A program made the translations under genes and the position numbers. The notes beneath the pieces were generated by a model, which did not search any database, had not been told where the DNA came from, and worked only from the letters and a program-made list of their open reading frames with translations. From Deltaproteobacteria bacterium (GTDB lineage: Bacteria > Myxococcota > Kuafuiibacteriia > Kuafuiibacteriales > Kuafuiibacteriaceae): a DNA stretch of 64,000 bases. Of the stretch, positions 33,392-50,421 are shown one piece after another (the stretch's first letter is position 1; the number at the start of each line of letters is the position of its first letter). The stretch spans positions 1 to 64,000 of the forward strand of contig JAVJQW010000018.1 of the NCBI GenBank assembly GCA_040218735.1, given 5' to 3'.

Positions 33392-35116
33392 TCAGTCGTT
33401 CACGCGTCGCCGCGCCCTGCGCACGACGGCCTCCCGGAGCGCGCGCAGCGTCACCGGCTTCGCGACGACCTCCTGCATCCCGGCCGCTTCACACATCGCG
33501 ACCTCCTCCGCGAAGGCGGAGGCCGTCAGCCCGATGATCGGCGTCTGGCCCACCTCCCCTTCGAGCGCGCGGATGCGCTCGGTCGTCTCGGGCCCATCCA
33601 GCCCGGGCATGAGTCTGTCCATCAGCACGAGCGCCACGGTCTCGTTCTGCACGGTCGTGATGGCGTCCTCGCCGTTGTCGACCGTCTTCGTGCGACAGCC
33701 GAGGTGGAGCAACATCTTCTCCGCCACCTTGCGGTTCGTGGGGTTGTCGTCGACCACGAGCACGATGCCATCGAGCTGCGGGAGCGGTCCGTCGTCCGGC
33801 CCGGCGGCCGTGTCGGAGAGCGGTCGTACCGACGCCGTCTTCAGCGGAAGAACGAAGCTGAAGCGACTGCCGCGACCCAGCGTGCTCTTCACTTCGATGC
33901 GACCGCCCATCGCCCGGACGAGGTGCTGGCTGATCGCGAGCCCGAGTCCGGTGCCGCCGTACGTTCGATGCACGCTCGCGTTGGCCTGGGAGAACGGGAT
34001 GAACAACCGCTCCAGCTGCTCCGCCGCGATGCCGACGCCGGTGTCCTCGACCGCGAGCTCGATACGCCCGTCCTGCGGCTGAACGGACACACGAACATGG
34101 CCACGCTCCGTGAACTTCACCGCGTTGCCGATGAGGTTGAGGAGCACCTGCCGCAGACGCGCGCCGTCGCCGACCACGTACTTGGGCGCGCCGGCCGCGA
34201 CGTCCAACTTCAACTCCACGCCCTTGTCCTGCGCGCGCGCGCGCAGCAGCTCGACGGAGCTTTGAACGCAGTCTTGCAGCGAAAACGGCGCGCGCTCCAG
34301 ATCGACCTCGCCGGCTTCGAGCTTCGAGAAGTCGAGGATGTCGTTGAGGATGGAAAGCAGCGCCTCACCCGACGTGAACACCATCTCGGCCAGCGTGCGG
34401 TCCTCTTCGTGCAGCTCGCCGCGCCGAAGGAGATCCGCGGACGCGAGCACACCGTTCATCGGCGTACGGATCTCGTGGCTCATCGTCGCGAGGAACACCG
34501 ACTTCGCCTGGTTCGACGCCTCCGCGAGCTGGCGTGCTGCCTCGAGTCGCTCCGCGAGCTGACGGTTCTCGCGGAAGTAGAAGCCCGCGAAGATCGTCAT
34601 CACCACGAGCTGGTTCGTCGCCATGATGGCCATCTCCAGCTGTGACGTCTCGACCAGCGGGTTCGCGATCCACCCCGCGTCACGCGCGACGGCCATCGGT
34701 ATCGCGGTGAGCACCGAGACGATCGCCACACCCCAACCCGCCTTCGGGCCCAAGATGTAGACCGCTCCCGCGAGGAGCACGGTGTCCCAGGTGAACACCA
34801 CCACCATGCCGCCGAGCTCGAGTGCGTTGAAGACCAGCGCGAGGTGGCCGGCCGCGAGCACCGCCACCGCGGCGACCCACAACCGCTTCGTCAGTCTGAG
34901 CAACGTCGCGCCGACCAGGAACGTCGTGAGCGGAACGACGTGGGACACGAGGATCCGCCCGCTGTCCGCGAACCGCGCGACGCCCGCGATGATCAGCCCG
35001 AGCGACGCGAGCACGAACAGCATCTGAACCAGGCGCGCGCGCACGCGGAGGTGCGGATCGGCGAGCACCTCATCGGGGATCGTCGCGTCGAGCCAGGCGG
35101 TAGGGCGAAGCGCCAT
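33392..35116 (-). CDS. Membrane hybrid sensor histidine kinase (HisKA-HATPase-REC)
   Basis: 'FLATMSHEIRTPMNG', 'NLIGNAVKFT', 'DTGVG', 'GGTGLGL'; receiver 'VVDDN...LMD...PG...KP'. Confidence 0.95.
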   Translation of the reverse strand: MALRPTAWLDATIPDEVLADPHLRVRARLVQMLFVLASLGLIIAGVARFADSGRILVSHVVPLTTFLVGATLLRLTKRLWVAAVAVLAAGHLALVFNALELGGMVVVFTWDTVLLAGAVYILGPKAGWGVAIVSVLTAIPMAVARDAGWIANPLVETSQLEMAIMATNQLVVMTIFAGFYFRENRQLAERLEAARQLAEASNQAKSVFLATMSHEIRTPMNGVLASADLLRRGELHEEDRTLAEMVFTSGEALLSILNDILDFSKLEAGEVDLERAPFSLQDCVQSSVELLRARAQDKGVELKLDVAAGAPKYVVGDGARLRQVLLNLIGNAVKFTERGHVRVSVQPQDGRIELAVEDTGVGIAAEQLERLFIPFSQANASVHRTYGGTGLGLAISQHLVRAMGGRIEVKSTLGRGSRFSFVLPLKTASVRPLSDTAAGPDDGPLPQLDGIVLVVDDNPTNRKVAEKMLLHLGCRTKTVDNGEDAITTVQNETVALVLMDRLMPGLDGPETTERIRALEGEVGQTPIIGLTASAFAEEVAMCEAAGMQEVVAKPVTLRALREAVVRRARRRVND

Positions 35117-35183: not shown

Positions 35184-36482
35184 TCATCGACGACGCACGA
35201 GCTTGGCCGCGAAGAAGCCGTCTGGACGCCCTTCGTGATGCGGGCCGGTCCTGAGAACCTGTTCGATATCGAAGCGGTCTTCGAGCGCGGCGAGGTGCGC
35301 CTCGCCTTCGGCTCGCGTCACGGTACACACGGAGTACACGAGCACGCCGCCCACCCGAACGCGCTCCGCGCCGGCCGCGAGCACTTCGTCCTGGGTCTCG
35401 GTGAGTCCCGCGATGTCGGCGTCTGTCAGACGCCAACGAATTTCGGGGTGGCGGCGGAGCGTCCCGAGCCCCGAGCAGGGCGCGTCGACGAGCACACGAT
35501 CGAACGTCTCGTCCGGGAGCACCTTCTGAATCTCAATGGACTCGAGTCCGAGGCGTTTCGCGGAGGTTGCGACCCGAGCGAGGCGGTTGGGGTGCCGGTC
35601 GTGCGCGACCACGTGCCCCGTGTCGTCCATGCGCTCGGCGATGTGTGTCGTCTTTCCGCCGGGTGCGGCGCAGACGTCGAGGATGCGCTCGTTGGGCTGT
35701 GGATCGAGCAACATGACGACGCGCATCGACGCCTCGTCCTGAGGCGTGGCGCGACCCTCGCGGACACACAGGAGCTCCGCTGGCAGGACACCCCCGGCGG
35801 TCGAGTAGACGGCGCCGTCCACGACGCCGAGCTGACCGTGAATTTCGTTCGCGATCGCTTCCGCCGAGGTTCGGCGCTGATTCGCACGAAGCGTGAGCGG
35901 TGCCTCGTCCAGGGACGCGAGCGCAAAAGCGAGCGCTTCCTCGTCGCCGAGGTCCTTCACCAAACGCGAGCTGATTCCTTTCGGCAGCCCGCCGCAGACG
36001 GCCACATGTCCCACCGGGTCTCGCGATCGGTCGGGGACCTCGGGCAGGCGAGCGTCCGCCGGCGCCCGCGCGAGTTTGCGGAGCACCGCGTTCACGAAGC
36101 CACCGCCCTTGGGGCCGCGGCGTCGCTTGGCTTGATCCACCGCCGCCTGCACCACGGCGTGGTCCGGCACGCGGTCGAGGTACATCAGCTGGTACGCGCC
36201 GATCCGAAGCACGTCGATCAGCTTGGGGTCGACGTCCTTGGTCCGTTTGTCCGCGACGTGCCCGATCGCGAGGTCGAGGAACCCGCGGCGCCGGAGCACC
36301 CCGTAGACGATCTCCGTCGCGAGGCCGCGGTCCGCGGGGGACAGCGAGCGCTGCTCGAAGGCATTTCGCAGCGCCGTCGAGGCGAACGCGTTCTGCGTAA
36401 ATACGCGGAACAACACATCGAGCGCCACGTCGCGCGCGGTCCACGTCCGCGGCGTTCCGCGTTTGGGCTGAGTTTTCGACAT
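35184..36482 (-). CDS. rsmB: 16S rRNA m5C967 methyltransferase RsmB/Sun (NusB-like domain + MTase)
   Basis: 'ATEIVYGVLR', 'FVNAVLR', 'QDEAS', 'DVCAAPGGKT', 'DAPCSG', 'YSVCT'. Confidence 0.92.
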   Translation of the reverse strand: MSKTQPKRGTPRTWTARDVALDVLFRVFTQNAFASTALRNAFEQRSLSPADRGLATEIVYGVLRRRGFLDLAIGHVADKRTKDVDPKLIDVLRIGAYQLMYLDRVPDHAVVQAAVDQAKRRRGPKGGGFVNAVLRKLARAPADARLPEVPDRSRDPVGHVAVCGGLPKGISSRLVKDLGDEEALAFALASLDEAPLTLRANQRRTSAEAIANEIHGQLGVVDGAVYSTAGGVLPAELLCVREGRATPQDEASMRVVMLLDPQPNERILDVCAAPGGKTTHIAERMDDTGHVVAHDRHPNRLARVATSAKRLGLESIEIQKVLPDETFDRVLVDAPCSGLGTLRRHPEIRWRLTDADIAGLTETQDEVLAAGAERVRVGGVLVYSVCTVTRAEGEAHLAALEDRFDIEQVLRTGPHHEGRPDGFFAAKLVRRR

Positions 36483-36588
36483 CGCCAGGGAGGGTTTCGG
36501 TGCGCCCGGCGTAGGAATGGTCGAGCGGAGGGATGTCCGTCAACCCGAGTTCGGGGCGAAGGACGACCAGCCGGAAGGGAATCGACGA

Positions 36589-37137
36589 ATGGTGGCAGTG
36601 CTCGAATCGCAGGCTAGCGGGGGGGACCCGAAGGACGCACGTCGCAGCGCCGCGCAAGCGGCGGACGTGTTGGCGATGGCGCGGGCGGCGCTCGACGGTG
36701 TCGAACGCGCGCTCCGCAGCGCACCCGAGGTCCAGGCGAGCCGGGTGATGTCGCGCTGGCCGCTGTCGCTCGAAGACCTCCTGCTGGAGCTGGAACCCAC
36801 GGCCGACCAGACGACGCTTCGGGAGCTGGCGCCTCGTCTGGGGGTGTCCGTGGGGCAGGTTCGATCGACCGCGCTGCGCCTTCAGCGCATGGGGATGGTG
36901 AAGGTGACCGCGGACGGCGTCGCGATGACGTCGGCGGGGCGGTCGAAGATGGCGCGCTTGGACGCGGCGCGGTCGGCCGTCCTGCGTCGCCTGGCGGAGC
37001 GGCTCGAGCCGCTGTCGTCGGGTGATTCCGATCAGCTCCTCGCGCTGCTCGTCGACCTGGTGGGTGGGATCGACCGGTTCGTCAACGAGCAGACACGCGG
37101 GGGCCCGACGATCGAAGGGTTGCGTCTGTCGCGTTAG
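36589..37137 (+). CDS. MarR-like winged-helix regulator
   Basis: HTH '[29 protein letters not shown]' and wing 'VAMTSAGR'. Confidence 0.65.
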
Positions 37138-37154
37138 CGCGATTTGGTCCCGCG

Positions 37155-37838
37155 GTGGCCCCCGCGCGACCGATTCAGATTGCACCCTCGATCCTTTCGG
37201 CCGACTTCGGCCGCCTCGCGGAGGAGATCCGCGCGGTGGACGAGGCGGGCGCCGACCAGATCCACGTCGACGTCATGGACGGGATGTACGTCCCGAACAT
37301 CACTATCGGCCCGCTGATCGTGAAGGCCGCGCGCAAGGCCACGAAGAAGCCGCTCGACGTGCACCTCATGATCGTCGAGCCCGAGCGCTACGTCGAAGAC
37401 TTCATCGAGGCCGGCGCGGACACCGTCACGGTCCACGCTGAGGCCGCGACGCACCTGCACCGCGTCATTCAGCAGATCAAAGGGGCGGGCGCGCGCGCGG
37501 GGGTGTCGCTGAACCCGAGCACGCCGCCGGACGTCCTCGACTACGTGCTCGGCGACCTCGACCTCGTCCTCGTGATGAGCGTCAACCCAGGTTTCGGCGG
37601 GCAGTCGTTCATCCCCGCCGTCGTGCCGAAGATCGCCGCCATCCGCGAGCGCCTCGAGGCCCGCGGCCGCGCCGGTGAGGTCGACATCGAGGTCGACGGC
37701 GGCATCAAGCCCGCCACGGCCCCGGCGGTCGTCGAAGCGGGCGCCAACCTGCTCGTCGCGGGCTCCGCGGTCTTCAATCAGCCCGACTATCGCGCCGCGA
37801 TCGAGGGCATCCGCAACGCGGGGCACCAAAGGCATTGA
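37155..37838 (+). CDS. rpe: Ribulose-phosphate 3-epimerase
   Basis: '[10 protein letters not shown]', 'HVDVMDG', 'DVHLM', '[10 protein letters not shown]', 'EVDGG', 'VAGSA'. Confidence 0.97.
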
Positions 37839-37864
37839 CAGCCGGCCCCACCGAAGCATAAACG
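37835..37864 (+). promoter_or_regulatory. Possible sigma70 promoter for tRNA-Pro
   Basis: Perfect TTGACA at 37835-37840; weak -10 (TAAACG) 18 bp downstream. Confidence 0.4.
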
Positions 37865-37927
37865 CTTGCTTCCGCGACGGGAGGTCGGCCCAACGGCCAT
37901 CGCTCCGCCGCGAAAAAATCGACCTTA

Positions 37928-38002
37928 CGGGGTGTAGCTCAGCTTGGTCAGAGCGCTTGGTTCGGGATCAAGAGGTCGGAAGTTCAAATCTTCTCACCCC
38001 GA
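37928..38002 (+). tRNA. tRNA-Pro (anticodon CGG), CCA not encoded
   Basis: Acceptor stem CGGGGTG/CACCCCG, D-arm AGCTCAGCTTGGTCAGAGC, anticodon arm CTTGG-TTCGGGA-TCAAG, T-loop TTCAAAT; followed by CTA rather than CCA. Confidence 0.96.
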
Positions 38003-38006
38003 CTAG

Positions 38007-38050
38007 AAGGGCCCGAGAACACTGGTTGTTCTCGGGCCTTTCGCTTTTCT
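38007..38050. terminator. Intrinsic terminator hairpin between tRNA-Pro and the convergent retron RT
   Basis: 12-bp stem GGCCCGAGAACA-ctggt-TGTTCTCGGGCC (38010-38038) followed by TTTCGCTTTTCT; AGAA on the other flank suggests it may act on both strands. Confidence 0.82.
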
Positions 38051-38058
38051 CGGGCGCC

Positions 38059-39342
38059 CTAATCGTCGAGCTTCGCGAGCCGGTCCAGGAACGCGCGGCC
38101 CTTCTTCGGGTCCGTCATGTACACGTACGCGGCCATCCCGCGGAGCTCCGACACCGACTCCTTGGCGCCGCGCCCCAACTCCAGGTTCTTGATCGCCGCA
38201 CGGAGGTTTCGGACCGTCCGGCGGGGCACGCGCGCTTTGATCTCATGATCGTCGTTCACCACCAGGCCCGTGATCTGCTGCCGGCGCCCGCGCCGTAGCA
38301 CGCGCGTCTTCTTCCGGTTCACCCAGAAGCCCTCGTCACGCACGATGCCGCCGACCACCTTGAGGAGCGGTCCTATCGGCGCGTCGTCCTTCTTCCCGTG
38401 CCACGAGAACGTCAGGTCGTCCGCGTAGCGCGTGTAACGAAAGCCGAAGCTCTTCACCAACGCGCTGATGCGCGCGTCGAGGCGCAGGCAGATCGCGTTC
38501 GTGATCGACGGGCTCGTCGGCGCGCCCTGCGGGAGCGACCGCGCGCCCGTCGCCACGTAGTACGTCTTGCCCTTCATCTCGATCGTCTCGCGCGGTGACT
38601 CCGTCACCAACAACGCGAGGATCGTCGCGACCTGCTCGCCGTAACCCGCCTTGCGCAAGAGCCCCTTCACCCGCGGCGTGGTGATCGTCGGGTAGAAGTC
38701 CGACAGATCGATCTTCACCACGATCTCCGCCCCCGCGTGCACGCGCGCGTTGGTCACCGTGCTGCGCCCCGGCAGGAACCCGTGCGCCGCGCCGTGCACC
38801 GGGAGGTGCTCCGTGATCTTCTGCGCGATCCAGTGCTGCACGCGTTTCAGCTCCGGCTTCGGCGCGGAGATCAAACGCTGCCCACCCGTGCGCTTCGGCA
38901 CCGTCCACCGGTGGTAGTGCGTCCCGCGTTCGACCTCGCGGTGGTACGCCAACCAGCGCAGCCGCGGGATCGTCACGTCCAACGCCTTCGCCAACGCCGT
39001 CACGTCCGCGAGGTCCGGCAGGTCGTTCTCCCGGCGGCGCGCCTCGGCATCTTCGATGTCGAACTTGTCGACGTCCGCGGTGTCGTGATGGAAGACGCCG
39101 ACGCCCACGTGCACCAGGTGCGCCCCGCGGTACGCCGACCACGCGTGACGCTTCAGCGTCTTCCGCACCCGCCGCTCTTCTTCGCGCCGCGCCTTGTACT
39201 GCTTCTTCTCCGCGTCCGAGAGCGTGGACGTGTCGCGGTTGTCGATCAGGTCGCGGCGCATCAGCTCGGCGTGGACCCAGGCGTCCACGCCGCCTTCGGC
39301 CGCGATGACGTCCCAGGCGGGGAGGGCGTTCGGTTCGGTCAT
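38059..39342 (-). CDS. ret: Retron-type reverse transcriptase (myxobacterial msDNA type)
   Basis: 'KRTGGQRLISAP', 'AAHGF', region X 'NARVH' (NAxxH), 'LPQGAPTSP', catalytic 'YADD', region Y 'QITGLVVN'; charged N-terminal extension. Confidence 0.96.
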   Translation of the reverse strand: MTEPNALPAWDVIAAEGGVDAWVHAELMRRDLIDNRDTSTLSDAEKKQYKARREEERRVRKTLKRHAWSAYRGAHLVHVGVGVFHHDTADVDKFDIEDAEARRRENDLPDLADVTALAKALDVTIPRLRWLAYHREVERGTHYHRWTVPKRTGGQRLISAPKPELKRVQHWIAQKITEHLPVHGAAHGFLPGRSTVTNARVHAGAEIVVKIDLSDFYPTITTPRVKGLLRKAGYGEQVATILALLVTESPRETIEMKGKTYYVATGARSLPQGAPTSPSITNAICLRLDARISALVKSFGFRYTRYADDLTFSWHGKKDDAPIGPLLKVVGGIVRDEGFWVNRKKTRVLRRGRRQQITGLVVNDDHEIKARVPRRTVRNLRAAIKNLELGRGAKESVSELRGMAAYVYMTDPKKGRAFLDRLAKLDD

Positions 39343-39369
39343 GCCGTCGTCGGTCTTCGTCGTCGTCTC

Positions 39370-39653
39370 TTCAGAACTGTCGTCAACGAGGTGGGGAAGC
39401 CGTAACTCGCTACTTCCTTACTCGGGACACGGTAGGCTCACCGGTTTGGCCCCCGGAGGGGGTACTATCGACTGGGCCTGAACGACGGATGCGTGGTTGG
39501 CCCAGCTAGGCCCGTCGATAGTACCCCCTCCGGGGAGCCAAACCACGCATAGCCTACCTTGTGGTGAATGCCGAACGATTGAGCTCGGACGGCGCTACGC
39601 CGCCCTGAAGCTAACAAGGCCGACTTCCCCACCTCGGTGGCGACAGTTCTGAA
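39370..39653 (-). ncRNA. msr-msd: Retron msr-msd non-coding RNA
   Basis: 30-bp inverted repeats 39370-39399 / 39624-39653 with 2 mismatches; UUAGC branch site (G at 39611); two small msr hairpins; msd hairpin 39431-39558 with a perfect 22-bp core; directly upstream of the RT. Confidence 0.92.
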
Positions 39654-39687
39654 TCTCGAAACTACTTCGAAGGACCTCCCCCTTTCC

Positions 39688-41496
39688 TCACCCCGACTCC
39701 GCCGACGTCGAGTCGATGTAGCCGCGTTCCGCGAGGCCGTCGAGCCTCGCGAAGTACTCTTCTTTCGCTTCCTCGGCCGAGCCGAAGAACAACCGATGCA
39801 TCCGCATCGCGTCCAACGCTCGACCCCACCGCAAGACGACTTGCCGGTCGTCGAGCGAGATTCGGTAGGTCGTCGAGCCGTCACGTTCGCGGCGGATCAA
39901 CGTCCGCGTCTCCGCGCGGATCAACTTACGACCCTCTTCCGTGTTGCGCGCCGCTTCGAGCTCCGCGCGTTTGCGGGCGTACGCGAGGCGCAGCGCGATC
40001 ATCGGCACCGTCGGACCTTCGCGCAACCCCGCGCGACGGAACTGCGGGCTCGTGCAGGTCGCGTCGACGGTGCGCCCCTCGCGGTCCAGCGTGAACGACG
40101 TCGAGTAGACGCGGTGTGCCTTCTCGTCCGCGACCGTCCCTTCGATCCGCATCCCCTCCGCGCCGAGGTCGTGCAGCTTCGTGATCTCCACCTGGCCGGG
40201 TGTCTGTAGCAGCCGGTGCGCCTCGGCTTCGCCCGCGTCGCGGTAACGCACGTGCTCGCGGTCGATCGCATCCGAGAACAACGCCCGCGCGCGGAACACC
40301 GCGGCGGGGACGTCGTGCACCACCCGGCCCCGCTCGATCTCCGCGAGGAGCGCCTGCCGGATCGCGTTCGTGCTGCGCCCGAGCTCGGACGCGAGCGCCG
40401 TGATCGACGCCGGCCCGTGACCGAGCCGCTGCAACACCCGCGGCGCGAGCAAGTCGTCCGTCGTACCCGCCGCGAGCAGGTCGAACGTCGCGATCCCCGC
40501 CCATCCGCTGTCGACCCAGCCCGACAACGACAACGTCAGCTGCGCGTCGCCGAGATCGACCACGTAGGTCGCCGGCAGCCCTGCGCCGAGGACCCGCACT
40601 TGGACCTTCTTCGCGTGCGGCAACACCCGCGCGAGCGCCATCAACCGCTTGCGCCCCCACGTCCGCAGGATGATCGGACGGTCGCCTTCGTACGGCCCCG
40701 CGGTCCCCGTGAACACGAGGTCCCACGGCTCGAGCACCAGACGCGGCGCCTCACCCGGGACCAGCTCGTAGCGCAACGCCCGCGGCGACGTGCGCGCGCG
40801 CTGACGCTTGAGCGTGAGGAGCACGTTGTAGAGATCGACCGGCGCGAGCTCGAACGTCGACGCCGGGAGCGTCGACGCCGCCTGCACCTGACCGAACGCA
40901 CGAATCCAGCGGTACGGCACGGCGATCTCACGGTCCTCGCCGCTCGCGCCGGGCCGCACGGTCAGCGAAGTGGTGCGGTACGAACGAATGCGGGCGATCG
41001 ACTCCAGCGCCGCCGCCGTCAGGTTCAGGTTCGTGGTCCCCGATTGGAACGAAGGCGCCGAGAACGCTTCGCGCGCGAGGAACAACCGCGCGTACGAAGA
41101 CTCGTCGCGGGAGAACACTTCGAGCGCGACGCCGTCCTCCGTGACGTGCAGGATCGGATCGAGCGGCGCCGCGACCTCCTCCTGCTCGCCGTACTTCGCA
41201 TCGAGGTAGGCCTTCTGGGCGTTCCACAGCTCGTTCGACGCCGCCTTCCCCTTCGTCGCGAGGTACGCGAGATAGTCCGACCGATCCTGCGCCTTGAACC
41301 GAAGGTCGCTCGCCAACACGTCGCCCACGCCGAGCAACGCATCACGCGCAACCTCCGGCCGCACCAGCTCACCCGACACCGACGGGCCCGCGCGCATCGC
41401 GTCGGTCGAGAGCATGACGTCGAGTCGATCGCCATCGACGGTCGGTGCGACGGGCGCGTCGTAGCGAACGACGACGCGTTTGGTCTCGGCGCTCAT
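39688..41496 (-). CDS. Retron-associated protein: wHTH + degenerate SWIM + C-terminal WGR-like domain
   Basis: SWIM-like 'DATCTSPQFRRAGLREGPTVPMIALR'; WGR-like 'VVLRWGR...FGSAEEAKEEY...AERGY'; ATGA-coupled to the upstream gene. Confidence 0.75.
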   Translation of the reverse strand: MSAETKRVVVRYDAPVAPTVDGDRLDVMLSTDAMRAGPSVSGELVRPEVARDALLGVGDVLASDLRFKAQDRSDYLAYLATKGKAASNELWNAQKAYLDAKYGEQEEVAAPLDPILHVTEDGVALEVFSRDESSYARLFLAREAFSAPSFQSGTTNLNLTAAALESIARIRSYRTTSLTVRPGASGEDREIAVPYRWIRAFGQVQAASTLPASTFELAPVDLYNVLLTLKRQRARTSPRALRYELVPGEAPRLVLEPWDLVFTGTAGPYEGDRPIILRTWGRKRLMALARVLPHAKKVQVRVLGAGLPATYVVDLGDAQLTLSLSGWVDSGWAGIATFDLLAAGTTDDLLAPRVLQRLGHGPASITALASELGRSTNAIRQALLAEIERGRVVHDVPAAVFRARALFSDAIDREHVRYRDAGEAEAHRLLQTPGQVEITKLHDLGAEGMRIEGTVADEKAHRVYSTSFTLDREGRTVDATCTSPQFRRAGLREGPTVPMIALRLAYARKRAELEAARNTEEGRKLIRAETRTLIRRERDGSTTYRISLDDRQVVLRWGRALDAMRMHRLFFGSAEEAKEEYFARLDGLAERGYIDSTSAESG

Positions 41497-44400
41497 GTCC
41501 GGGCCTCCCGTTGCTGCTGCCGCTGCGCGCGGCGCAACGCCTTGAAGGTCGCGGCGCGGACGGCGTCCGGCTCACCCTCGGTGTCGAGGATCGACTGCAG
41601 CGCGTTCGCCGCCGCGTCCGTCCCGACACGACCGAGCGCGTAGATCGCGGAGAGACGCGCGGCGGACTCCCCGGACCCCGCCGCCGTCGCGACGAGCGCA
41701 TCCACGCGCCGATCCCCGACCGCGGAGAACAGCGCGATCGGCCGCTCGTCGGACGCGAGCACCGCCGTCGCGTCGGCGTCGAGCGCCGCGCTTACCATCG
41801 GGCCCACCGCGCCCGGATCCGGCACGGCGGTCTCGCGGAGAATCGCGGGCGCGGCCGCAGCGTCGAGCGCGACGATGGTCGCAGCAGCCGCCGCGCGCAC
41901 CGAAGCGTCGGACGCGGACAGCGCCGGCTTCAAACGCGCCACGTCGCCGGCGCTCCCCACCGCTGCGATGAGTCGGAGCGCCTCCACCCGCACGTCGGCC
42001 GGCGCATCCTCCGAGGTGATCGCTCGATACGCCGCCGCGCTCGCGTCGGCCTTCAGGCGCGCCGCCGCCCACATCGCGGCGTGCCACGCGCGGTGGTCCT
42101 TCTCTCGCTCCGAACGCTCCAGCGCTCCGAGGACGTCCGGGCCGAGCGCGAGGTTGCCGGCGGCGCCCGCGAGGAACGCAGCCTCGGCGCGGGCGTGGCC
42201 GTCGTCGCTCGCGAGGAGCGCACGCAGCTCTTCGGACGGCGCGAGGCCGCGCCGTGCGAGGCCGAGCCGCAAACGTCGACGCACTTCGCGATCTTCGATT
42301 GCCGCGATGCGCGAAACGAGGGTCGCGGCGTCGCCGCCCTTCGCGAGGAACGCCGCCGCCGGCGCGCTGACGTCCGAGTGTTGGCTGTCGAGCGCGTGCA
42401 GCGCGACGCGCGTCGGGTCGTCCGCGAAGGTCTTCGTGAGCGCCGCGAGGGCCTTCCGTCGCACCGCCCGATCGGGATCACCGAGTGCGTCCGCGAGCAC
42501 CAGCTCGGACGCGGCCGGTGCGAGGACGATCAGCTGATCGATCGCGAAGCGTCGCAGGTTCAGATCGTCGTAGCGGTCCGCGACGATGCGTTCGATCTGC
42601 TCGCGGCTCGCGTCGTCGCCCGCCCGTCGCAGCCCGGTGATCGTCTGGCGGCGAACGTCCGCCGTCCCCTCACGCGCGAGGCGCACCACCGTGGAACGGA
42701 TCTCTCGCCGCCGCTCTTCATCGACGATCCGCGGCACCATCGACGCGAGCGCCTCGGCCGCGAAGGGCACGAGCGCAAGGTCCGCTTCCTCGAGCTCTGC
42801 GCTCGGATCCACGAACGCGATCAGCTCATCGACGGCGCGGTCGTCTCCGAGCACGCCGAGCCCGAGCATCGCCTGCTGTCGCTCATGCGGCAGTCCGGCC
42901 TTCAGCACCAGCAGCAACGGCCGGAACGCCTCGACGCGGCCGCGCACCGCGAGGCCGACCGCCGCGGGGAGCACCAGCTCGCGTCGGCCGGCGGCGATCG
43001 CGCGCTCCAACGCGGCGATCGAAGCACCTTCGATGTGCTCGGCGCGGAACGCGATCGACTCGGCGGCGGCGACGCGCACGTCTGCGTCGCGGTCGTCGAT
43101 CAGCTTGGCGAGGGTCACCTCCGCGTCCGCGTCCTCGACCGCGTTCAACAGCGTCGCCGCGGCGATACGCAGCTCGGGGCGAATGCTCGCCGCCGCGACG
43201 CCCGCGTACCGAATCGCGAGCGCGTCGTGGTAGCGCAGGCGTGCGCCGCCGTCGGTGATCGGGACGCTGGGCCGCGACGTGTCGCGCGCGATCGCGACGA
43301 GCGCTTCCCACCCCGTGTCGCCGAGCGCGGTGTCCTCGTCCGCGAGGATCGCGAAGAGTGTGTCGGACGCCGCGTCACTCCCGATGCGGCCGAGCGCCCG
43401 GACGATAGCGCGGCGGTCCGCGGTGGCGTCGGGGTCGTCTTCGAGGCGGCCGGTGAGGGCGGTCGCCGCCGTCGCCGCATGTTCGTTTGCGGCCGACGCC
43501 AACGTCACCAGCCCGTCGATCGCGCGCGAGGCGGTGCGTTCGTCGTCGCTCCGCAGGAACCCGGCGAAGACGTCGGCGGTGCGGGGGTCGCCACGACGCG
43601 CCAGGCTGCGCGCCGCCTGCATTCGCAGATCTTCGTGGTCACTCTCCAGCGCGCGCCCGAGCGCGGCGCGGATGCGTGCCTCGTGGTCGTCGGCGTTGGG
43701 CAGCGCGGCGAGGCGGTCCACAACGAGTCGTCGCACGTCGGCGAACGGGCTCTCGAGGGCGATGAACCAAGGCTCGAGGCTACCCTCCTCGAACAATCGA
43801 GGCAGCCGCGACAGCGCGTGGGCGCGCGCATCACGGCTCTTCGCCGCAAGCGTGCGCGGCGCGAGCTCGCGCGCGGCGGCGTCGCCCTCCAGCGCTCGCT
43901 CGATCACGAGATCCACCGCCGTGCGTCCCACATCGTCCGCCGACGAATCGAGCGAAAGCAGCAGAGGTGTGATCGGGTCTTCGGGGTACAGCTCGGTCAG
44001 CGCCGTCTGCGCGCGGCGCCGCACGAGGTGGTGCGGATCCGACAACGCCCGGCGGACGATCGGCAGCACGGCGTCGCGTCCCACGGACGCCAGCGACGAC
44101 AGCGCGACGAGCCGCGCGACGCTGTCGCGGCGAACGCGGTGGGTCTCGTCGGCTTCGCCCTCGGGCGGCGCCTGACGGACGAGCCCGGCGTAGGTGCCGA
44201 ACAGCACCTCGTCGACCGGCCCCGGCTTGGCTTCGCCGCGGGCGAACAGGCGACGCAGCCAACCCTTCTTGGTTCGGGTGCGCGACTCGTCTTCCCAGTT
44301 CGTGTGCGGGCGCGCGCCACCGCCGGGTCTCGCGAGCCGACGCGCTTCACGCCAGTAGCCCTTCGGCGTCGCGCGGAGCTCCAACACACGCGCGGCGGCG

Positions 44401-47400
44401 TAGCGCTGCTCCGGGTCGTCGCTCGCGAGCGCCGCGACGACCACCGACAACAGCCGGGCCTGCTCTTCCTCCGACGGAAGGTCCTTGGGCTTCGCTCCGC
44501 GCTCCGGAGTCTTCGGCCCGACCATCGAACGCGCGACGTCTCCGATGGCCTCCTCGTCCGTGCGTGTCTCGAGCGCGCGCGCCGCCGCGAAGCGAACCTC
44601 CGGGTGCGCGCTCGAGAGCGCGAGCACGAGGAGGTCCGGTACGAGCCCCGCCCGTGCGAGCGCGATGTCACGTGCGACGACGATCGCGAGCACGAGGTCC
44701 GCGACCTCGCGATCTGGATCCTGAAGCCCGGCGAGCAACCCGCGCACGCCATCGGGGCCGAGCGCGACGAACCCGAGGATCGCGCCGACGCGTATCGGGC
44801 GGTGATCGTGCGTGAGGGTGCCGGCGAGAACGACGGCCGCGCGGTCGTCGCCGAGGCGCGCGAGGCCCTCCGCCGCCCAGCTCCGCACCGCCATGTCCGC
44901 GTGCGCGAGCGCGTCGACCAGCGGCTTCTCGCGCCCGGGTCGACACGCGGTCGCGAGGCCACGGGCGCCCATCTCGCGGACCGTGCCGTCCTCGTCGTCG
45001 AGGAGGGAGATATAGAACGGGATGACGCTCGGGTCGCCGACGTCCGCGAGCGCCCGCGCCGCGCGTGCGCGCAGGTCGTCGGTCGGGCGATCGAACGCGA
45101 TCTTCGGGATGCGCAGGAGCGCCTTAATCGGCTCCACGGCGCGTTTGTCACGACGTTTGCCGAGCAGCTCCGCCGCGCGCACCCGCAGCTCGAAGAACAC
45201 ACTCGCGAACGCACGCCGGTATGGTTCGACGTCCTGGTGGAACATCGCGTCCGCCGCTTCGATCGCCGCGAGGTGAACGTCACGGTGCTCCTCCGTGATG
45301 AGCTCGAGGAGGCGGGCGCGGAGATCCTCGGCCGGCGCGCGGCGACAGCCCTTGCACCCGGCGGCGCGGACCTCGGGCCGCGGCGAGTGGAGCGCCATCA
45401 GGAACACGTCGGACTTGGTCTCCTCCGCTTCGTCCTTCGTGATCGCTTTCAGCGCGGCGAGCCCCACGTCGGACGACGCGTCCGCGACGAGCGCGAGCAA
45501 CAGACGCCGCGCCCACTCGCCCTCCGCCTTCGCGAGGCGGTCCACGACGGAGCGCCGGACGTCGGCGTGTCTCGAACCCGCGCCCCGCCGCAAGGCAGGT
45601 TGCAAGTCTTCGCTGTGCCACGCGAGCAGCGTGCGCAGCGCCTCGGTGCGGACCTTCGAGGACTCGTCGTCGAGCGCGCGCCCGAGGAGCTCGTCGGCGC
45701 GGGACTCACCCTGCGCGGCGACGACGAGCGCGAGCGATCGGCTCCGGATGTCGTCGCGGCCCGCGTCGAGGGCGAGCGCGGCGAGGTCGAGGCGGGCGTC
45801 GGTGCCCTCTCCCGCGAGGTCGAGCAGAGCCTCGAAGGCCGCGTTGGCGATCTTCTCGCTGGTGTCGTCGAGCAGCCATGACAGGCGCGCGGTCGCGCGG
45901 TCGTCGTTTGGTATCGCGCGCGCGGCGACGAGGAGCGGCGCGACGACCATCGCGCGGACTTCGTCTCGGCTCTCGCGGCTGAGCTGCAGCAGCGCGCCCA
46001 CCGCTCTCAGATCTCCGAGCGCGGCGAGGCGCGCGGCGCCGAGCAACGCGGCGTCCGCACGACGACACGCGAGCGCGGCGAACAGCGGGACGAGGTCGGC
46101 CTCCTCGGGGGCGCCATCGGCTGCCGCCGTGCCGATCGCCTCGAGCGCCTTGGCGGCGTCGGGGTCGACGGCCGCGAGGCGGGCGGCGAGCCGAGGGCGT
46201 GCGGCGACGGCGACGTAGAACGCGGTGCGCCGGATCGCCGCGTCGTCGTCGTCGAGCGAGCGTTCGACGAGGTGCTGTCCGTCGGGGGTCGCGGAGAGGT
46301 TCGACTTCGCGAGGCGGAGGAGCGTCGCCTTGCGAACGTCCGGCGGCCCCCGTTCCAGGGCGACCTCCGCTGCGGCGAGCGGCGCGTCGCGCTCCAGCGT
46401 GAACAGCGATTCGAGCGCGGCCTTTCGGACCTCGTCGTCGCCGTCCGAGAGGCTTCGCGCGACGAGCCCGGGCACCAGCGGCGACGCCGCACGGTGCGCG
46501 GGGAGCCGCTCCACCGCGAGCTTGCGGAGGTCCGCGTGGCTCGAGCTCAGCGCTGCGGTCAGTGGTCCGACGGGGGTTCGAACGTCGATCGTCGCCAGCG
46601 CATCGAACGCTGCGCGGCGCGCACCGGCGTCGGCGTCGTTCAGAGCCGACTTCAGCGCGCCTCGCGAGCGACGCCGTTCGCCCCGCCCGATGGCGGCGGC
46701 GGCGGCCTTGCGGACCTCGGCGTCGCGGTCCTGGGTCAGCGCGCGGTCGAGTAGCTCGCGGGCTTCGTCTTCCGCGAGGCCCTCCAGCATCATCACCGCG
46801 TCGAGCCGCGCTTGGCTGCCGCGTGCGCCGAGGTCGGCCGAGAGGCGCTCGAACGCGGAGCCGTAGCGCTTCGTCTTGTGGGGTGCGCCCTTGCCGTCGA
46901 GGCCGACGATCGTCAGGCGCCGGTCTTCGCCGACCAACGCGATTCGCTCGGCGTCCAGCAGCACGCCGGACGTCAACGTACCGCCGACCTCGGTGAGCTT
47001 CGGTTTGCGACGGCTGTCGACGAACCACGACGCGAGGTTGCCGTCCTGCCCGACGGAGTGCAGCCGCCCGGGCCCCACGAACAACGCGACCACCGGACCG
47101 CGGTGGGCCTGGTCGCCGGAGCGGTCCTCTTCGTCGACGGCGCCCTCGAGGAAACACAGGCGAATCGATCCGTCCCCGCACCCCACCGCGACTCGACCGT
47201 CGCCCGTGAACGCGAGTGAACGTACGCCGCCTTCGCCGCACGGCATCCGGCGCGGCTCGCCGCTCCGCATCGCGAACACGACGCCTTCGTCGCCGCCGGT
47301 CGCAACGGTCTCACTGCTCGGGTCGAAGGTGGTCGCGCGCAGCGGCTCCTTCGACAGCACGACCGACGTCAGCTCGGTGCCGTTGGCGTCGAGCACGAGC

Positions 47401-47753
47401 ACCGACCCGTCTTCGCGCGCGGCGTAGACACGTTGGTCCGCGACCAGCGCGTTGGTCTTCGAGCCCGGGTGTGCGGCGCCGAGTGTCGGTCGGTTGCCGG
47501 AGAGGTCGTAGATGGTGAGGCCGCCGCGCTCGTCGGCGACGAAGAGGCGGTCCTCGCCCGAGAAGGCGAGCGCCGTGACCGGCGCGCCGACGTCGATGGC
47601 GTGTTTGGGCTCCAGCTTCTTGCCTTCGAAGACGTGAACGGTGGAGGCCGCGACGTTCGGCGCGTCGCGCCGCCCGCCGATCGCGACGCGCCGCCCTGAA
47701 GGCGTGCATGCGACCGCGGTGAGTCGCTCGAGGTGCGGTCGGAAGTCAGCCAC
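41493..47753 (-). CDS. Retron-associated giant WD40 + HEAT/ARM repeat protein (~2086 aa)
   Basis: N-terminal WD40-like blades ('VTALAFS', 'VATGGDEG', 'AVGCGDGSIR'), then many HEAT units ('ALxDxDxxVR'). GTG start at 47753 has a GGGAG RBS and overlaps the upstream stop. Confidence 0.85.
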   Translation of the reverse strand: MADFRPHLERLTAVACTPSGRRVAIGGRRDAPNVAASTVHVFEGKKLEPKHAIDVGAPVTALAFSGEDRLFVADERGGLTIYDLSGNRPTLGAAHPGSKTNALVADQRVYAAREDGSVLVLDANGTELTSVVLSKEPLRATTFDPSSETVATGGDEGVVFAMRSGEPRRMPCGEGGVRSLAFTGDGRVAVGCGDGSIRLCFLEGAVDEEDRSGDQAHRGPVVALFVGPGRLHSVGQDGNLASWFVDSRRKPKLTEVGGTLTSGVLLDAERIALVGEDRRLTIVGLDGKGAPHKTKRYGSAFERLSADLGARGSQARLDAVMMLEGLAEDEARELLDRALTQDRDAEVRKAAAAAIGRGERRRSRGALKSALNDADAGARRAAFDALATIDVRTPVGPLTAALSSSHADLRKLAVERLPAHRAASPLVPGLVARSLSDGDDEVRKAALESLFTLERDAPLAAAEVALERGPPDVRKATLLRLAKSNLSATPDGQHLVERSLDDDDAAIRRTAFYVAVAARPRLAARLAAVDPDAAKALEAIGTAAADGAPEEADLVPLFAALACRRADAALLGAARLAALGDLRAVGALLQLSRESRDEVRAMVVAPLLVAARAIPNDDRATARLSWLLDDTSEKIANAAFEALLDLAGEGTDARLDLAALALDAGRDDIRSRSLALVVAAQGESRADELLGRALDDESSKVRTEALRTLLAWHSEDLQPALRRGAGSRHADVRRSVVDRLAKAEGEWARRLLLALVADASSDVGLAALKAITKDEAEETKSDVFLMALHSPRPEVRAAGCKGCRRAPAEDLRARLLELITEEHRDVHLAAIEAADAMFHQDVEPYRRAFASVFFELRVRAAELLGKRRDKRAVEPIKALLRIPKIAFDRPTDDLRARAARALADVGDPSVIPFYISLLDDEDGTVREMGARGLATACRPGREKPLVDALAHADMAVRSWAAEGLARLGDDRAAVVLAGTLTHDHRPIRVGAILGFVALGPDGVRGLLAGLQDPDREVADLVLAIVVARDIALARAGLVPDLLVLALSSAHPEVRFAAARALETRTDEEAIGDVARSMVGPKTPERGAKPKDLPSEEEQARLLSVVVAALASDDPEQRYAAARVLELRATPKGYWREARRLARPGGGARPHTNWEDESRTRTKKGWLRRLFARGEAKPGPVDEVLFGTYAGLVRQAPPEGEADETHRVRRDSVARLVALSSLASVGRDAVLPIVRRALSDPHHLVRRRAQTALTELYPEDPITPLLLSLDSSADDVGRTAVDLVIERALEGDAAARELAPRTLAAKSRDARAHALSRLPRLFEEGSLEPWFIALESPFADVRRLVVDRLAALPNADDHEARIRAALGRALESDHEDLRMQAARSLARRGDPRTADVFAGFLRSDDERTASRAIDGLVTLASAANEHAATAATALTGRLEDDPDATADRRAIVRALGRIGSDAASDTLFAILADEDTALGDTGWEALVAIARDTSRPSVPITDGGARLRYHDALAIRYAGVAAASIRPELRIAAATLLNAVEDADAEVTLAKLIDDRDADVRVAAAESIAFRAEHIEGASIAALERAIAAGRRELVLPAAVGLAVRGRVEAFRPLLLVLKAGLPHERQQAMLGLGVLGDDRAVDELIAFVDPSAELEEADLALVPFAAEALASMVPRIVDEERRREIRSTVVRLAREGTADVRRQTITGLRRAGDDASREQIERIVADRYDDLNLRRFAIDQLIVLAPAASELVLADALGDPDRAVRRKALAALTKTFADDPTRVALHALDSQHSDVSAPAAAFLAKGGDAATLVSRIAAIEDREVRRRLRLGLARRGLAPSEELRALLASDDGHARAEAAFLAGAAGNLALGPDVLGALERSEREKDHRAWHAAMWAAARLKADASAAAYRAITSEDAPADVRVEALRLIAAVGSAGDVARLKPALSASDASVRAAAAATIVALDAAAAPAILRETAVPDPGAVGPMVSAALDADATAVLASDERPIALFSAVGDRRVDALVATAAGSGESAARLSAIYALGRVGTDAAANALQSILDTEGEPDAVRAATFKALRRAQRQQQREART

Positions 47754-50421
47754 GTCGCGGCTCCCCGACGGCCGGCGGCAGCTTCGTCTCGACGTCGCCG
47801 TGTGTCGCGCGGATGCGCGCGAGCGCCGCGACGCACGCCTGCCACTCCCCCTGGGCGGCCGAAGCCATGAACTCGTCGAACACCGGCACCACGACGTCGG
47901 CGAAGGCGCGGTCTTCGATCGCGAGGTCCCGCATGACCTCGACGAGCCGCCGCTTCGCGACGCTCGCCGGGAACGGACGCGCGGGTGCGAGCTCGGCGTC
48001 GAGCTCTCTTCGTTCCATACGACCCGGCGGTAGCCCGAACAAGACGGTGCGGAGGAACTGCCGGAGCGCCTCGCCAGACGCGCCTTCACGGCCGTGTTTG
48101 CGCCACAACAGGCGCACCGCGAAGAGCCGCACGTCGCGGTCGGGGCTCTCCATCAGCCACGCGAGGCGCCGTGCGCCGCCGACGCGATCGTAGTGTCGCT
48201 CGATCAACGTCAGCGCGATCTCGCGCGTGGCCTTCACGTGGCTCTCGGCGAGCGCGAACAACCGCACGTCGTCGAGCCACTCCGACGGCACCGAGATCTC
48301 CGCGTCCTCGTCACCGATACCGAACAGCGCCTCGGCGGCGAGCTGTCGCCCCTCGCGGAAGCGGCTGTCGGCGAGCTCGTACACGAGCGCCGCGTCGCCC
48401 CAGCGCACGAGCTCCTGGCGCCCGACTCGTACCGCGAGGCGGCGTACGTCGGCGCGCTCGTCGGTGAACCCGGAGCGCACGTAGGCGAGGCCGTACGCGG
48501 CGTGGTCGAGCTTCGGCGCGATGGCGAGTGAGCGACCCTCGTTGGTCGTCGGTCCGAGCACCGGGTGGTGCACCGCAAGGTAGGTTGCAGCGAACCGACG
48601 CACGGGCTCCGCCTGCTTCGGCCCCGTCGCGAGGTGCCACAGGCGCTCGATGCCGCCGAAGTCGTCCGGTGTGAAGTGCTCGAGGAGGTACTGGTGCGCG
48701 AAGCTCGCGAGCGCCTCGTCCGTGCGCCGTGTCATCGCGAGGAGCCACTCCAGCCCGACGCGCCCCGGCCGCACGAGCTTCGGGTTGGAGAGGATGCCGA
48801 TCGCCAGCGGCCGCAGGCTCGGCCGCATCACGAGGCCCTTCACCCACTCCACGTCGAGCGCGTCGCCGGACAGCATTCCGTCGAGCAGCCAGCGGGACAC
48901 CGTGGACTGCAGCGCCGGGTTCATCACGGCCTCTTTCAGCCACGCCGCGCCGATCTCCTGGCCGCTCCGGGTCGAGAGCATCTTCAGGGCGTCGCGCCGC
49001 TCCGACCAGCCGCAGCGCCGGTCCTCGAGGAGCTGCGTGAGGTACGCCGCGGGGATGGTTTGCTCCGCGTCTCGGAAGAGCTTCTCGACGAGCCCCTTCA
49101 TCTCGCGGCCGCTCGTGTAGAGCGCGATGAACTGCTCGGCGCTCAGGTCACGAGGCTGGTACCCGCGCCGCAGCATCTCGGTCGCCAGCTCGCGCGCGGC
49201 GCGTACGCGGAGAAGTCGCGTGAGGTGGTCGAGGCCGATCGTCTTCGGGTCGAGCTTGCCGAGGCGCTCGAGCGCGAAGTCACGGGCGTCGGCCGGACCT
49301 TCGACGAGCTCGACGAGGCGGTCCACCGGGAGGTTCGGCACGTGCGCGCGAACGTAGGCGAGGGCGTACCGCCGCGCGGCTTCGCTCTCGCTGTCGAGGA
49401 AGCGGACCACCATGTCGCCGAGTCCGAGTGCGGCGAGCTTCGACTGGTGCAGCTCCGGGCTCTCTTCGAGGAGGCGCACCACGAACGCGTGCACGGAGCC
49501 GAGCGGACGGCGCGCGATGCGCTCCAGCCACTTCGGATCCACCTTCTCCTTCTCGCCGGGGAAGTCCGTCTCGATGCAGCGAATCGCGAAGCGACACACG
49601 GAGTCGTTGTTCGCGTCCTCCAGGAGGCGCAAGACAGGTTGCGGCGACGCCTTCCACGCCTCGTGGGCGTAGCGCTTCTCGAGATCGTCCGGCGGCCCGT
49701 CCATCCACGACGAGCCGCTCCCCTCGTACTCCAGATCCGCGTGCGCCCAGATCTGATTCGCGACCCACGACCCCGCGAACTTGAACCGCTGCGGATAGTG
49801 GCTCAGGACCTGCGCGGCGAGCGATGGATAGACGTCCGGCAGCGCGCGGCCGAGCTCGCGGAGGTACCGCCACGCGCGCCGCCGCATGTACAGGACGGTG
49901 CCGGGGAGGATCTCGTCGGTGCGGTACGGCGTCTGCGGGAGGGCGTCGAGGCGCCACAGGAGCACGCCGAGCATCCGCACGTCGTGTTCGTCCTCCGCGC
50001 GTTTGTAGATCGCCTTGAACGCCTGCCAGGTGCCCCACCCGAGTCGGGCGCGCGCGAAGACGTCGACGAGGAGCTGCCGATGCCACGCGTCGCCGCCCTC
50101 GTAGAACGCGGTGAGCATCGGCCCGAGGTCGAGGCGCGGCGGGTGATGGGGCGCGGCGATCACCTGCTTCCACGCCTCGGCGCGTATCACCTTCTTCTCG
50201 TCGTCGGTCTTGCCGTCGAGGGTGTTCGGGTGGAGCGAAGTGCGGAGCCGCTGAAGCGTGAACGCATCCGCCGCCGCCGGGTCGGCTTCGTCGGCACCCT
50301 CCGCGCGGTCCTCGGGCGGGTCGGGTTGCTCGAGGTAACTCACGATCAGAGCGGCCGCCTCCGGGCTCCGATCGTCGAGCGCGCGCTGGACGTCTGCAAA
50401 CGTGATGGCGGCGCCGCTCAT
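47746..50421 (-). CDS. Retron-associated ARM/HEAT-like hypothetical protein (~891 aa)
   Basis: Helical L/A/R-rich protein with HEAT-like units ('FLDSESEAARRYAL', 'LMESPDRDVRLFAV'); first gene of the coupled operon; start re-assigned to MSGAA. Confidence 0.75.
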   Translation of the reverse strand: MSGAAITFADVQRALDDRSPEAAALIVSYLEQPDPPEDRAEGADEADPAAADAFTLQRLRTSLHPNTLDGKTDDEKKVIRAEAWKQVIAAPHHPPRLDLGPMLTAFYEGGDAWHRQLLVDVFARARLGWGTWQAFKAIYKRAEDEHDVRMLGVLLWRLDALPQTPYRTDEILPGTVLYMRRRAWRYLRELGRALPDVYPSLAAQVLSHYPQRFKFAGSWVANQIWAHADLEYEGSGSSWMDGPPDDLEKRYAHEAWKASPQPVLRLLEDANNDSVCRFAIRCIETDFPGEKEKVDPKWLERIARRPLGSVHAFVVRLLEESPELHQSKLAALGLGDMVVRFLDSESEAARRYALAYVRAHVPNLPVDRLVELVEGPADARDFALERLGKLDPKTIGLDHLTRLLRVRAARELATEMLRRGYQPRDLSAEQFIALYTSGREMKGLVEKLFRDAEQTIPAAYLTQLLEDRRCGWSERRDALKMLSTRSGQEIGAAWLKEAVMNPALQSTVSRWLLDGMLSGDALDVEWVKGLVMRPSLRPLAIGILSNPKLVRPGRVGLEWLLAMTRRTDEALASFAHQYLLEHFTPDDFGGIERLWHLATGPKQAEPVRRFAATYLAVHHPVLGPTTNEGRSLAIAPKLDHAAYGLAYVRSGFTDERADVRRLAVRVGRQELVRWGDAALVYELADSRFREGRQLAAEALFGIGDEDAEISVPSEWLDDVRLFALAESHVKATREIALTLIERHYDRVGGARRLAWLMESPDRDVRLFAVRLLWRKHGREGASGEALRQFLRTVLFGLPPGRMERRELDAELAPARPFPASVAKRRLVEVMRDLAIEDRAFADVVVPVFDEFMASAAQGEWQACVAALARIRATHGDVETKLPPAVGEPRRG

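Follow-up and report, generated by a model that had tools for sequence, protein, structure and literature searches.

Operon organization

The window (the whole 64,000-nucleotide stretch of DNA that was analysed) contains on its minus strand a 12.4 kb operon of five parts, in which an msr-msd RNA gene is the fourth, preceded by genes for a HEAT/ARM protein, a giant WD40-HEAT protein and a clamp-like protein of the SWIM family and followed by a gene for a retron reverse transcriptase (RT). The first gene (47746-50421) encodes a HEAT/ARM protein of 891 residues from an ATG at 50421; its product matches the PADLOC model HEAT-ARM_XIII PDLC02921 with an E value of 1.6e-254, and the gene and its equivalent in genome G085 are 55% identical. 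The end of this gene overlaps the likely start of the giant gene (41493-47753) by 8 nt. The giant gene is read from a GTG at 47753, with the frame open up to 48089, and encodes a protein of ~2086 residues with HEAT and WD40 repeats (Pfam HEAT_2, 1.7e-73, and WD40) that scores 1189.9 bits against HEAT-ARM_XIII PDLC02919. The stop codon of the giant gene overlaps the start codon of the SWIM-family gene (39688-41496) as ATGA, and the 602-residue product of the latter matches PADLOC SWIM_XIII over residues 8-509 (8.4e-145). The RT gene (38059-39342) encodes 427 residues and matches Pfam RVT_1 (8.8e-22) and PADLOC RT_XIII (9.1e-156, compared with 2.6e-93 for the next PADLOC model).

The stop of the SWIM-family gene (39688) and the ATG of the RT gene (39342) are separated by a gap of 345 nt, which is almost filled by a 284-base structured element (39653-39370, minus strand) with the layout of a complete retron msr-msd gene; the RT start lies 27 nt downstream of it. 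A scan for sigma-70 promoters over 37800-39900 gave none between the SWIM stop and the a1 arm of the element, and transcription of the msr-msd is therefore treated here as an assumption. On the other side of the RT gene, a tRNA-Pro(CGG) gene (37928-38002, plus strand) is convergent with it and lies 56 nt after the RT stop, and a strong terminator-like hairpin (38006-38042) follows the tRNA. The tRNA gene was considered as an integration mark and dropped, as it is found at one of 14 loci only, the 13 other loci scanned having none. Further downstream of the retron region, a hybrid histidine kinase is encoded (33392-35116, minus strand; HisKA, HATPase_c and Response_reg); nothing ties this kinase to the retron.

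The giant and SWIM-family genes lie directly upstream in all 13 relatives that were fetched with 9 kb of flanking sequence, these relatives having been picked among loci already known to have a SWIM gene nearby, and also in L003. Among the 20 Myxococcaceae loci with a full flank, a SWIM match is absent within the 1.5 kb flank in 11. Genome G085 shows a different order of parts. On one of its contigs (L051/L069, G085:C130) an RT 69% identical to that of the window starts ~10 nt after the SWIM stop, with no msr-msd between the two; on another (L023/L071, G085:C304) a complete msr-msd stands at the head of the operon, before the first HEAT/ARM gene and ~10 kb upstream. The end of the latter contig appears to abut the SWIM-RT contig and, judged from these sequences, the retron RNA gene of G085 has moved within its operon.

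Structure of the msr-msd RNA

The RNA of the element folds with a minimum free energy of -189.2 kcal/mol, compared with -110.6 ± 5.2 kcal/mol for 200 shuffled sequences (z -15.1), none of which is as good. Its two ends pair through the a1 arm (39621-39653, the 5' inverted repeat of the retron transcript) and the a2 arm (39370-39402), which form a 33 nt inverted repeat of 91% complementarity in the inverted-repeat search. The arms of 30 bp with two mismatches given in a preliminary description of this DNA correspond to the outer part of this repeat. A small internal loop separates a1/a2 from a 5 bp inner helix (39616-39612/39408-39412; U.G, G-C, U.G, U-A and A-U), which is the extension through G-U pairs to UUA|G that had been proposed. 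The helix ends just before G39611, the predicted priming (branching) nucleotide; its 5' strand and this G, within the sequence UUAGC, occupy 39611-39616, and the a2 arm together with the 3' strand occupies 39370-39412. In the available text of a review of retrons (PMC6868368), the priming G is housed in a conserved (T)AGC where the stem ends on its inner side, and the element of the window has this arrangement, with a closing stem made of inverted repeats and a candidate priming G in (T)AGC at its inner end.

The msr contains the hairpin GGGCGGCG-UAG-CGCCGUCC (39587-39605), which is part of the consensus structure. A second msr hairpin, CCGAGC-UCAAUC-GUUCGG (39571-39588), had also been proposed and is not retained: it is weak and specific to the window, forms only the 4 bp GAGC/GUUC in the window's own fold, has two C's in common with the first hairpin and has no counterpart in the RNAalifold consensus nor in most of the local folds of the relatives.

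The msd, i.e. the RNA template that would be copied into DNA, is predicted to span 39413-39575. It consists mainly of a long hairpin of 136 nt (39427-39562), delineated by inverted repeats and covariation, with a base helix (39427-38/39551-62) containing one mismatch, a long stem (39442-79/39508-45) and an apical loop of 28 nt (39480-39507) that holds a conserved mini-stem. The stem segments listed in the preliminary description all pair in the register given there, including a perfect run of 22 bp (39451-72/39514-35) and the 6 bp (39474-79/39508-13) that close the 28 nt loop; the base helix, described as 39431-38/39551-58, does pair, and its extent is greater than was described. Folded as DNA, the predicted product (39413-39574) has a free energy of -59.6 kcal/mol (z -9.7), with none of 200 shuffles as good.

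Conservation and covariation

Alignment A1 was made with MAFFT followed by pair counting and contains 26 nonredundant ncRNAs, 18 of which are Myxococcaceae rows. The full region was available at 28 loci, two of which were left out for an identity of at least 93% to another; two further loci are cut by contig ends. The RNAalifold consensus of the 26 sequences has 81 pairs, 54 of them with compensatory changes on both sides. Paired cells amount to 95.9%, compared with 76.7% in shuffles and 38.5-47.2% with slid partners, and none of 500 shuffles reaches any observed measure, although the aligned ncRNAs are kin and the shuffle statistics therefore overstate independence.

In helix 1 (the inner part of a1/a2), nine of ten pairs are changed on both sides among the 26 orthologues. 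The inner helix (helix 2) covaries at alignment columns 103/326 (AU in 18 sequences, GC in eight) and 105/324 (CG in 18, UA in five, UG in two, GC in one). The hairpin GGGCGGCG-UAG-CGCCGUCC (helix 3) is 97.7% paired, with four pairs changed on both sides. The msd base helix (helix 4) has 11 pairs and is 100% paired, the long stem (helix 5) has 37 pairs, 34 of which are changed on both sides, and the apical mini-stem (helix 6) has six pairs. The sequence of the long stem varies with the lineage while its pairing is kept. All 26 sequences have A39612 and G39611, and the C that follows shows a conservation of at least 90%.

Between the window and the 18 Myxococcaceae copies, the identity is highest in the base and 5' tail (0.72), followed by the 3' end and the apical part (0.66 each), and falls to 0.39-0.42 in the variable stem. 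The base and the tip of the hairpin are invariant, whereas the middle changes freely yet stays Watson-Crick paired, in keeping with the earlier remark that the ends and loop resemble Mx162 msDNA and that the central stem differs by covariation. The three helices that would remain RNA contain G.U pairs in 10.7-16.4% of their paired cells; the values for the three helices that would be copied are 0%, 4.2% and 0%. Since a G.U pair of the RNA would correspond to C.A, a mismatch, in the DNA copy, the low G.U content fits selection on a DNA hairpin too, and the near-absence of such pairs in the copied stem suggests, from the alignment, that the hairpin may be selected as DNA as well as RNA. In 23 of the 26 rows, a hairpin of 13-16 nt separates the priming G from the first msr hairpin; the RNA of the window lacks it.

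Predicted priming site and msDNA ends

The priming nucleotide is predicted to be G39611, the position put forward in the preliminary description, which fits both the invariant AG and the conserved helix geometry. The priming motif is TAGC in the window and most near relatives and CAGC in all 18 Myxococcaceae rows; CAGC is also the motif given for Mx162 and Sa163 in the review text available (PMC6868368). The first template base would be G39413, located 5' of the a2-side helix and opposite the priming G, and the DNA copy would hence start with C at 39413, a start that had been anticipated and that fits the same helix geometry and invariant AG. The numbers in the names Mx162 and Sa163 were taken as msDNA lengths to calibrate the 3' end. 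With the stop set at A1 column 159, the copy is 162 nt long at the loci of Myxococcus sp. and Pyxidicoccus and 163 nt long at the Stigmatella-cluster locus and at one further locus. For the window this column gives 163 nt (39413-39575), within the ~160-166 nt expected earlier. We infer from this homology that the msDNA would end at 39575, to roughly ±3 nt. The figures for Mx162 in the same review, a transcript of 241 nt and an msr of 71 nt (PMC6868368, in the portion available), were left unused because they are inconsistent with the measured a1-a2 spans (~279 nt in L011).

By analogy with retron biochemistry as summarized in the accessible part of that review (PMC6868368), the transcript would close on itself via a1/a2, the RT would bind the msr and the 2'-OH of G39611 would serve as its primer. 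The msd RNA would then be copied from G39413 leftwards on the RNA, i.e. rightwards on the plus strand, while the template is removed by host RNase H. Synthesis would stop near 39575 with a few RNA-DNA base pairs left, and the expected product is a branched RNA-DNA molecule whose DNA part, of ~163 nt, would fold into a long hairpin.

The retron may be real and its mature DNA may nevertheless differ from 39413-39575, through an earlier or later stop or through cleavage after synthesis as in some E. coli retrons. The 3' end derives from a single alignment column, the missing 13-16 nt hairpin could shift the positioning of the RT, and post-synthetic cleavage occurs in other retrons according to the review text available (PMC6868368). 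These points are countered by the spacing of the conserved blocks that flank the msd hairpin, which is 120-121 nt in the loci examined, and by the good conservation of the predicted stop region, with an identity of the window of 0.82 to near relatives and 0.66 to Myxococcaceae. We therefore consider a different mature DNA unlikely, while regarding it as the most serious of the alternatives, and retain 39413-39575 as the predicted product.

Reverse transcriptase and its relatives

The RT translation shows the motifs NARVH, RYADD (with the YADD core) and ITG. An NAxxH between motifs 2 and 3 and a YADD core are marks of retron RTs in the part of the review that was available (PMC6868368), and the RT of the window has both. 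By sequence, the closest solved RT is that of Ec86 (1.6e-37), and the PADLOC assignment to RT_XIII places the protein in RT clade 10, the clade of type XIII. In a tree of 46 RT segments, the window and nine Kofleriaceae-like relatives are sister to 24 rows from Myxococcaceae (f9) and f17, and the resulting 34-row clade has a support of 100/100; other type XIII RTs (L012-L015, L017 and L018) fall outside it. Ten of the Myxococcaceae RTs are public proteins by exact look-up, from Pyxidicoccus fallax, Myxococcus sp. RHSTA-1-4, Stigmatella, Corallococcus, Hyalangium and Citreicoccus. Sa163 was described in Stigmatella aurantiaca, whose RT Q53751 shares a 90% cluster with the RT of the Stigmatella locus L043.

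A search with the RT at E <= 1e-90 gave matches in 113 of 401 genomes of the phylum, namely in 100 of 172 genomes of Myxococcaceae (f9), six of 19 of the window's own family (f1), five of 11 of f17 and one of 18 of f3. RTs on three contigs of metagenome-assembled genomes (MAGs), labelled Kofleriaceae and 'Proteobacteria', are 62% identical to the RT of the window. In G001, the only genome of the same genus searched and 75% complete, no orthologue was present and the best RT match is 48% identical. The genome of the window encodes a second retron-type RT (L005, G000:C9:464368-465273), which is 39% identical, has RT_other as its best PADLOC model (3.7e-128) and falls in a distant clade of the RT tree.

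Accessory proteins

The SWIM-family protein is predicted to consist of a PCNA-like clamp protomer, a winged helix, a SWIM fold and a WGR-like tail. An AlphaFold2 model built with 15 orthologues has a pLDDT of 80.6 and a pTM of 0.80, and PCNA chains match model residues 39-333 with a Foldseek E value of 3e-7 and, in VIA, a Z score of 16.4 and an rmsd of 2.6 Å over 213 of 245 residues. The signals for two of the other modules are weak: the WGR-like tail has a Pfam E value of 0.059, below the cut-off, and DprA_WH is matched at E 0.004. A search of PDB sequences with the SWIM alignment found nothing below E 0.56.

In alignment A2, substitutions occupy three of the four zinc-binding positions of the SWIM finger in the window and the four relatives nearest to it (C-T-S...T-V-P, residues ~481-500), whereas the CxC...CxH ligands are kept in the other ten of the 15 aligned orthologues. 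Only the first cysteine of CxCx12CxH thus remains in the window, while homology over the full length is clear; across the subclade that has lost the ligands the SWIM-family proteins are still 52-71% identical over their full length. The lost zinc site could mean that the accessory module is changing or decaying.

As an alternative reading, the RNA gene would be a conserved relic, in an operon that is retained in the window lineage while msDNA is no longer made or used. The lost zinc ligands in the window and its four nearest relatives and the missing msr hairpin speak for this reading, but all five parts of the operon are intact, with open frames and coupled starts, and the RT keeps YADD and NAxxH. 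The near-perfect pairing of the window's own RNA, the compensatory stem changes that continue among the nearest relatives and the full-length conservation of the SWIM-family protein across the subclade also argue against a relic, which we consider very improbable.

Distribution in genomes and public sequencing runs

Of 401 genomes sampled from the phylum, 87 contain the core pattern AAGGTAGSCT-N100-115-GGTGAGSCTACC, mostly once in each; it occurs once in the window's own genome, and the reversed control gave 0. Some Myxococcaceae genomes have two msr-msd cores, with variable-stem sequences that differ between the copies. Tandem cores ~400 nt apart are located at G304:C11:510622 and 511033 (within L038), at G317:C630:16081 and 16495 and at G302:C730:204 and 584, and the two cores at G305:C6:650250 and 663981 are 13.7 kb apart. 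A scan of 36000-43000 against Rfam at E <= 1 gave a tRNA and one match at chance level, and none to a retron family.

An alternative is that the element is no retron RNA and instead regulates the RT gene as an intergenic palindrome, a terminator or an attenuator. Its intergenic position, its GC-rich and highly self-complementary sequence and the lack of an Rfam family match at E <= 1 are in keeping with this, but it is extremely unlikely in view of the invariant AG, placed where the long-range closing stem ends on its inner side, the co-occurrence with retron RTs in two families, the distribution of the pattern over the sampled genomes (mostly a single copy each), the absence of a T-run terminator at the hairpin and the G085 RNA, which keeps every feature ~10 kb from its RT at the operon head.

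DNA of the window is present in 22 public runs, all in the form of assembled DNA contigs, with no RNA run among them. Contigs of three other runs cover the ncRNA and have no letter differences inside 39370-39653. DNA near-identical to window positions 38800-40200 occurs in mixed culture, sponge, aquaculture and biofloc metagenome runs, with a share of words of 0.48-1.00 and two to six letter differences per run over 1401 bases. At the msd, the contigs of four of the 22 runs, which as contigs cannot show msDNA, have neither joints nor ends nor depth features. Breaks at 39334, beside a strain variant, are shared by two low-depth runs and are read as an assembly effect.

Interpretation

Taken together, these observations identify 39653-39370 (minus strand) as the msr-msd ncRNA gene of a type XIII retron that is intact and falls in the Mx162/Sa163 lineage, with a probability of about 0.93. 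The assignment to a retron, already made in the preliminary description, is upheld by the RT with an RVT_1 match 27 nt downstream, by its RT_XIII identity and by the end-to-end alignment of the ncRNA with loci of the Mx162/Sa163 lineage. The label 'Mx162-like' used there applies at the level of the lineage, the comparison having been made with loci of Stigmatella, Myxococcus sp., Pyxidicoccus and other Myxococcaceae; 'candidate new retron' overstates the novelty, as the locus belongs to the type XIII retrons, and the use in genome editing suggested there is hypothetical.

By analogy with other retrons, we infer that a complex of RT and msDNA together with the three accessory proteins may form a phage-sensing defence module. 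A more speculative proposal, which we consider doubtful and offer as a long shot, is that the msDNA hairpin might be the ligand of the operon's own PCNA-like clamp/winged-helix/WGR protein, with the SWIM zinc site no longer needed in the window lineage. The proposal draws on the strictly Watson-Crick stem and on the base and tip of the hairpin being invariant across families whose RTs are ~52% identical. If it were true, type XIII would be a system built on a giant HEAT scaffold, where a clamp-like protein rides along or caps a DNA hairpin of the retron's own making, and such a clamp device would differ from the toxin-sequestering logic of E. coli retrons.

The RNA of the window is fully readable and its ends are predictable, and the locus offers testable predictions on the priming G and the DNA ends, on selection of the stem at the DNA level and on the clamp-like accessory protein. 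A tractable member of type XIII has some value in itself; the finding leaves existing knowledge unchanged.

Comparison with known retrons

Mestre et al. (2020; PMC7736814), in the text available, assign Mx162, Mx65, Sa163 and Ne144 to type XIII and give SWIM and HEAT/ARM proteins as its partners. Two HEAT/ARM genes ahead of the SWIM gene are one architecture that they describe, and the SWIM protein is defined there by a zinc finger of the form CxCx12CxH together with a DEDE motif. The window has RT_XIII, SWIM_XIII and two HEAT-ARM_XIII matches, all far above noise, and the expected arrangement, with HEAT/ARM genes ahead of the SWIM gene and a linked protein with a winged helix and a SWIM fold (cluster-114). 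It differs from the class as described in that source in two respects: its SWIM protein keeps only the first Cys of CxCx12CxH, and the front half of this protein is predicted to be a PCNA-like clamp as opposed to a transposase-like fold. Our literature search found no functional test of any type XIII retron.

The nearest named RTs are those of Haliangium ochraceum, Plesiocystis pacifica, Paraliomyxa miuraensis and Kofleriaceae/Sandaracinaceae MAGs, which are 64-69% identical over the whole length and are annotated only as 'reverse transcriptase family protein'. The Kofleriaceae MAG loci have the ncRNA and operon as in the window. The literature searched held no description of an msr-msd for the RTs of H. 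ochraceum, P. pacifica, P. miuraensis or the MAGs; the supplementary tables of Mestre et al. may list them.

The closest characterized retrons are Retron-Sau1 (Sa163, S. aurantiaca) and Retron-Mxa1 (Mx162, M. xanthus), with which the window has its RT lineage in common, the 100/100 clade including the 90% cluster of S. aurantiaca and standing apart from other type XIII RTs. Loci of this lineage have ncRNAs that can be aligned with that of the window from end to end, save for the one absent msr hairpin, and have in common with it the helices, the invariant base and tip of the msd, the predicted DNA length of 162-163 nt and the giant HEAT and SWIM genes upstream. The differences lie in the RT, which has 427 residues in the window compared with 475-485 in Myxococcaceae, with a shorter N-terminal extension, at an identity of 51-54%; in the priming motif, which is TAGC in the window and CAGC in the Myxococcaceae rows; in the variable stem, which is ~40% identical; in the 13-16 nt hairpin after the priming G, which 23 of the 26 aligned ncRNAs have and the window lacks; and in the SWIM zinc ligands, which are lost in the window. 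Through this locus, the retron lineage that was discovered first (Mx162/Sa163) now reaches a Kofleriaceae-like branch of the myxobacteria.
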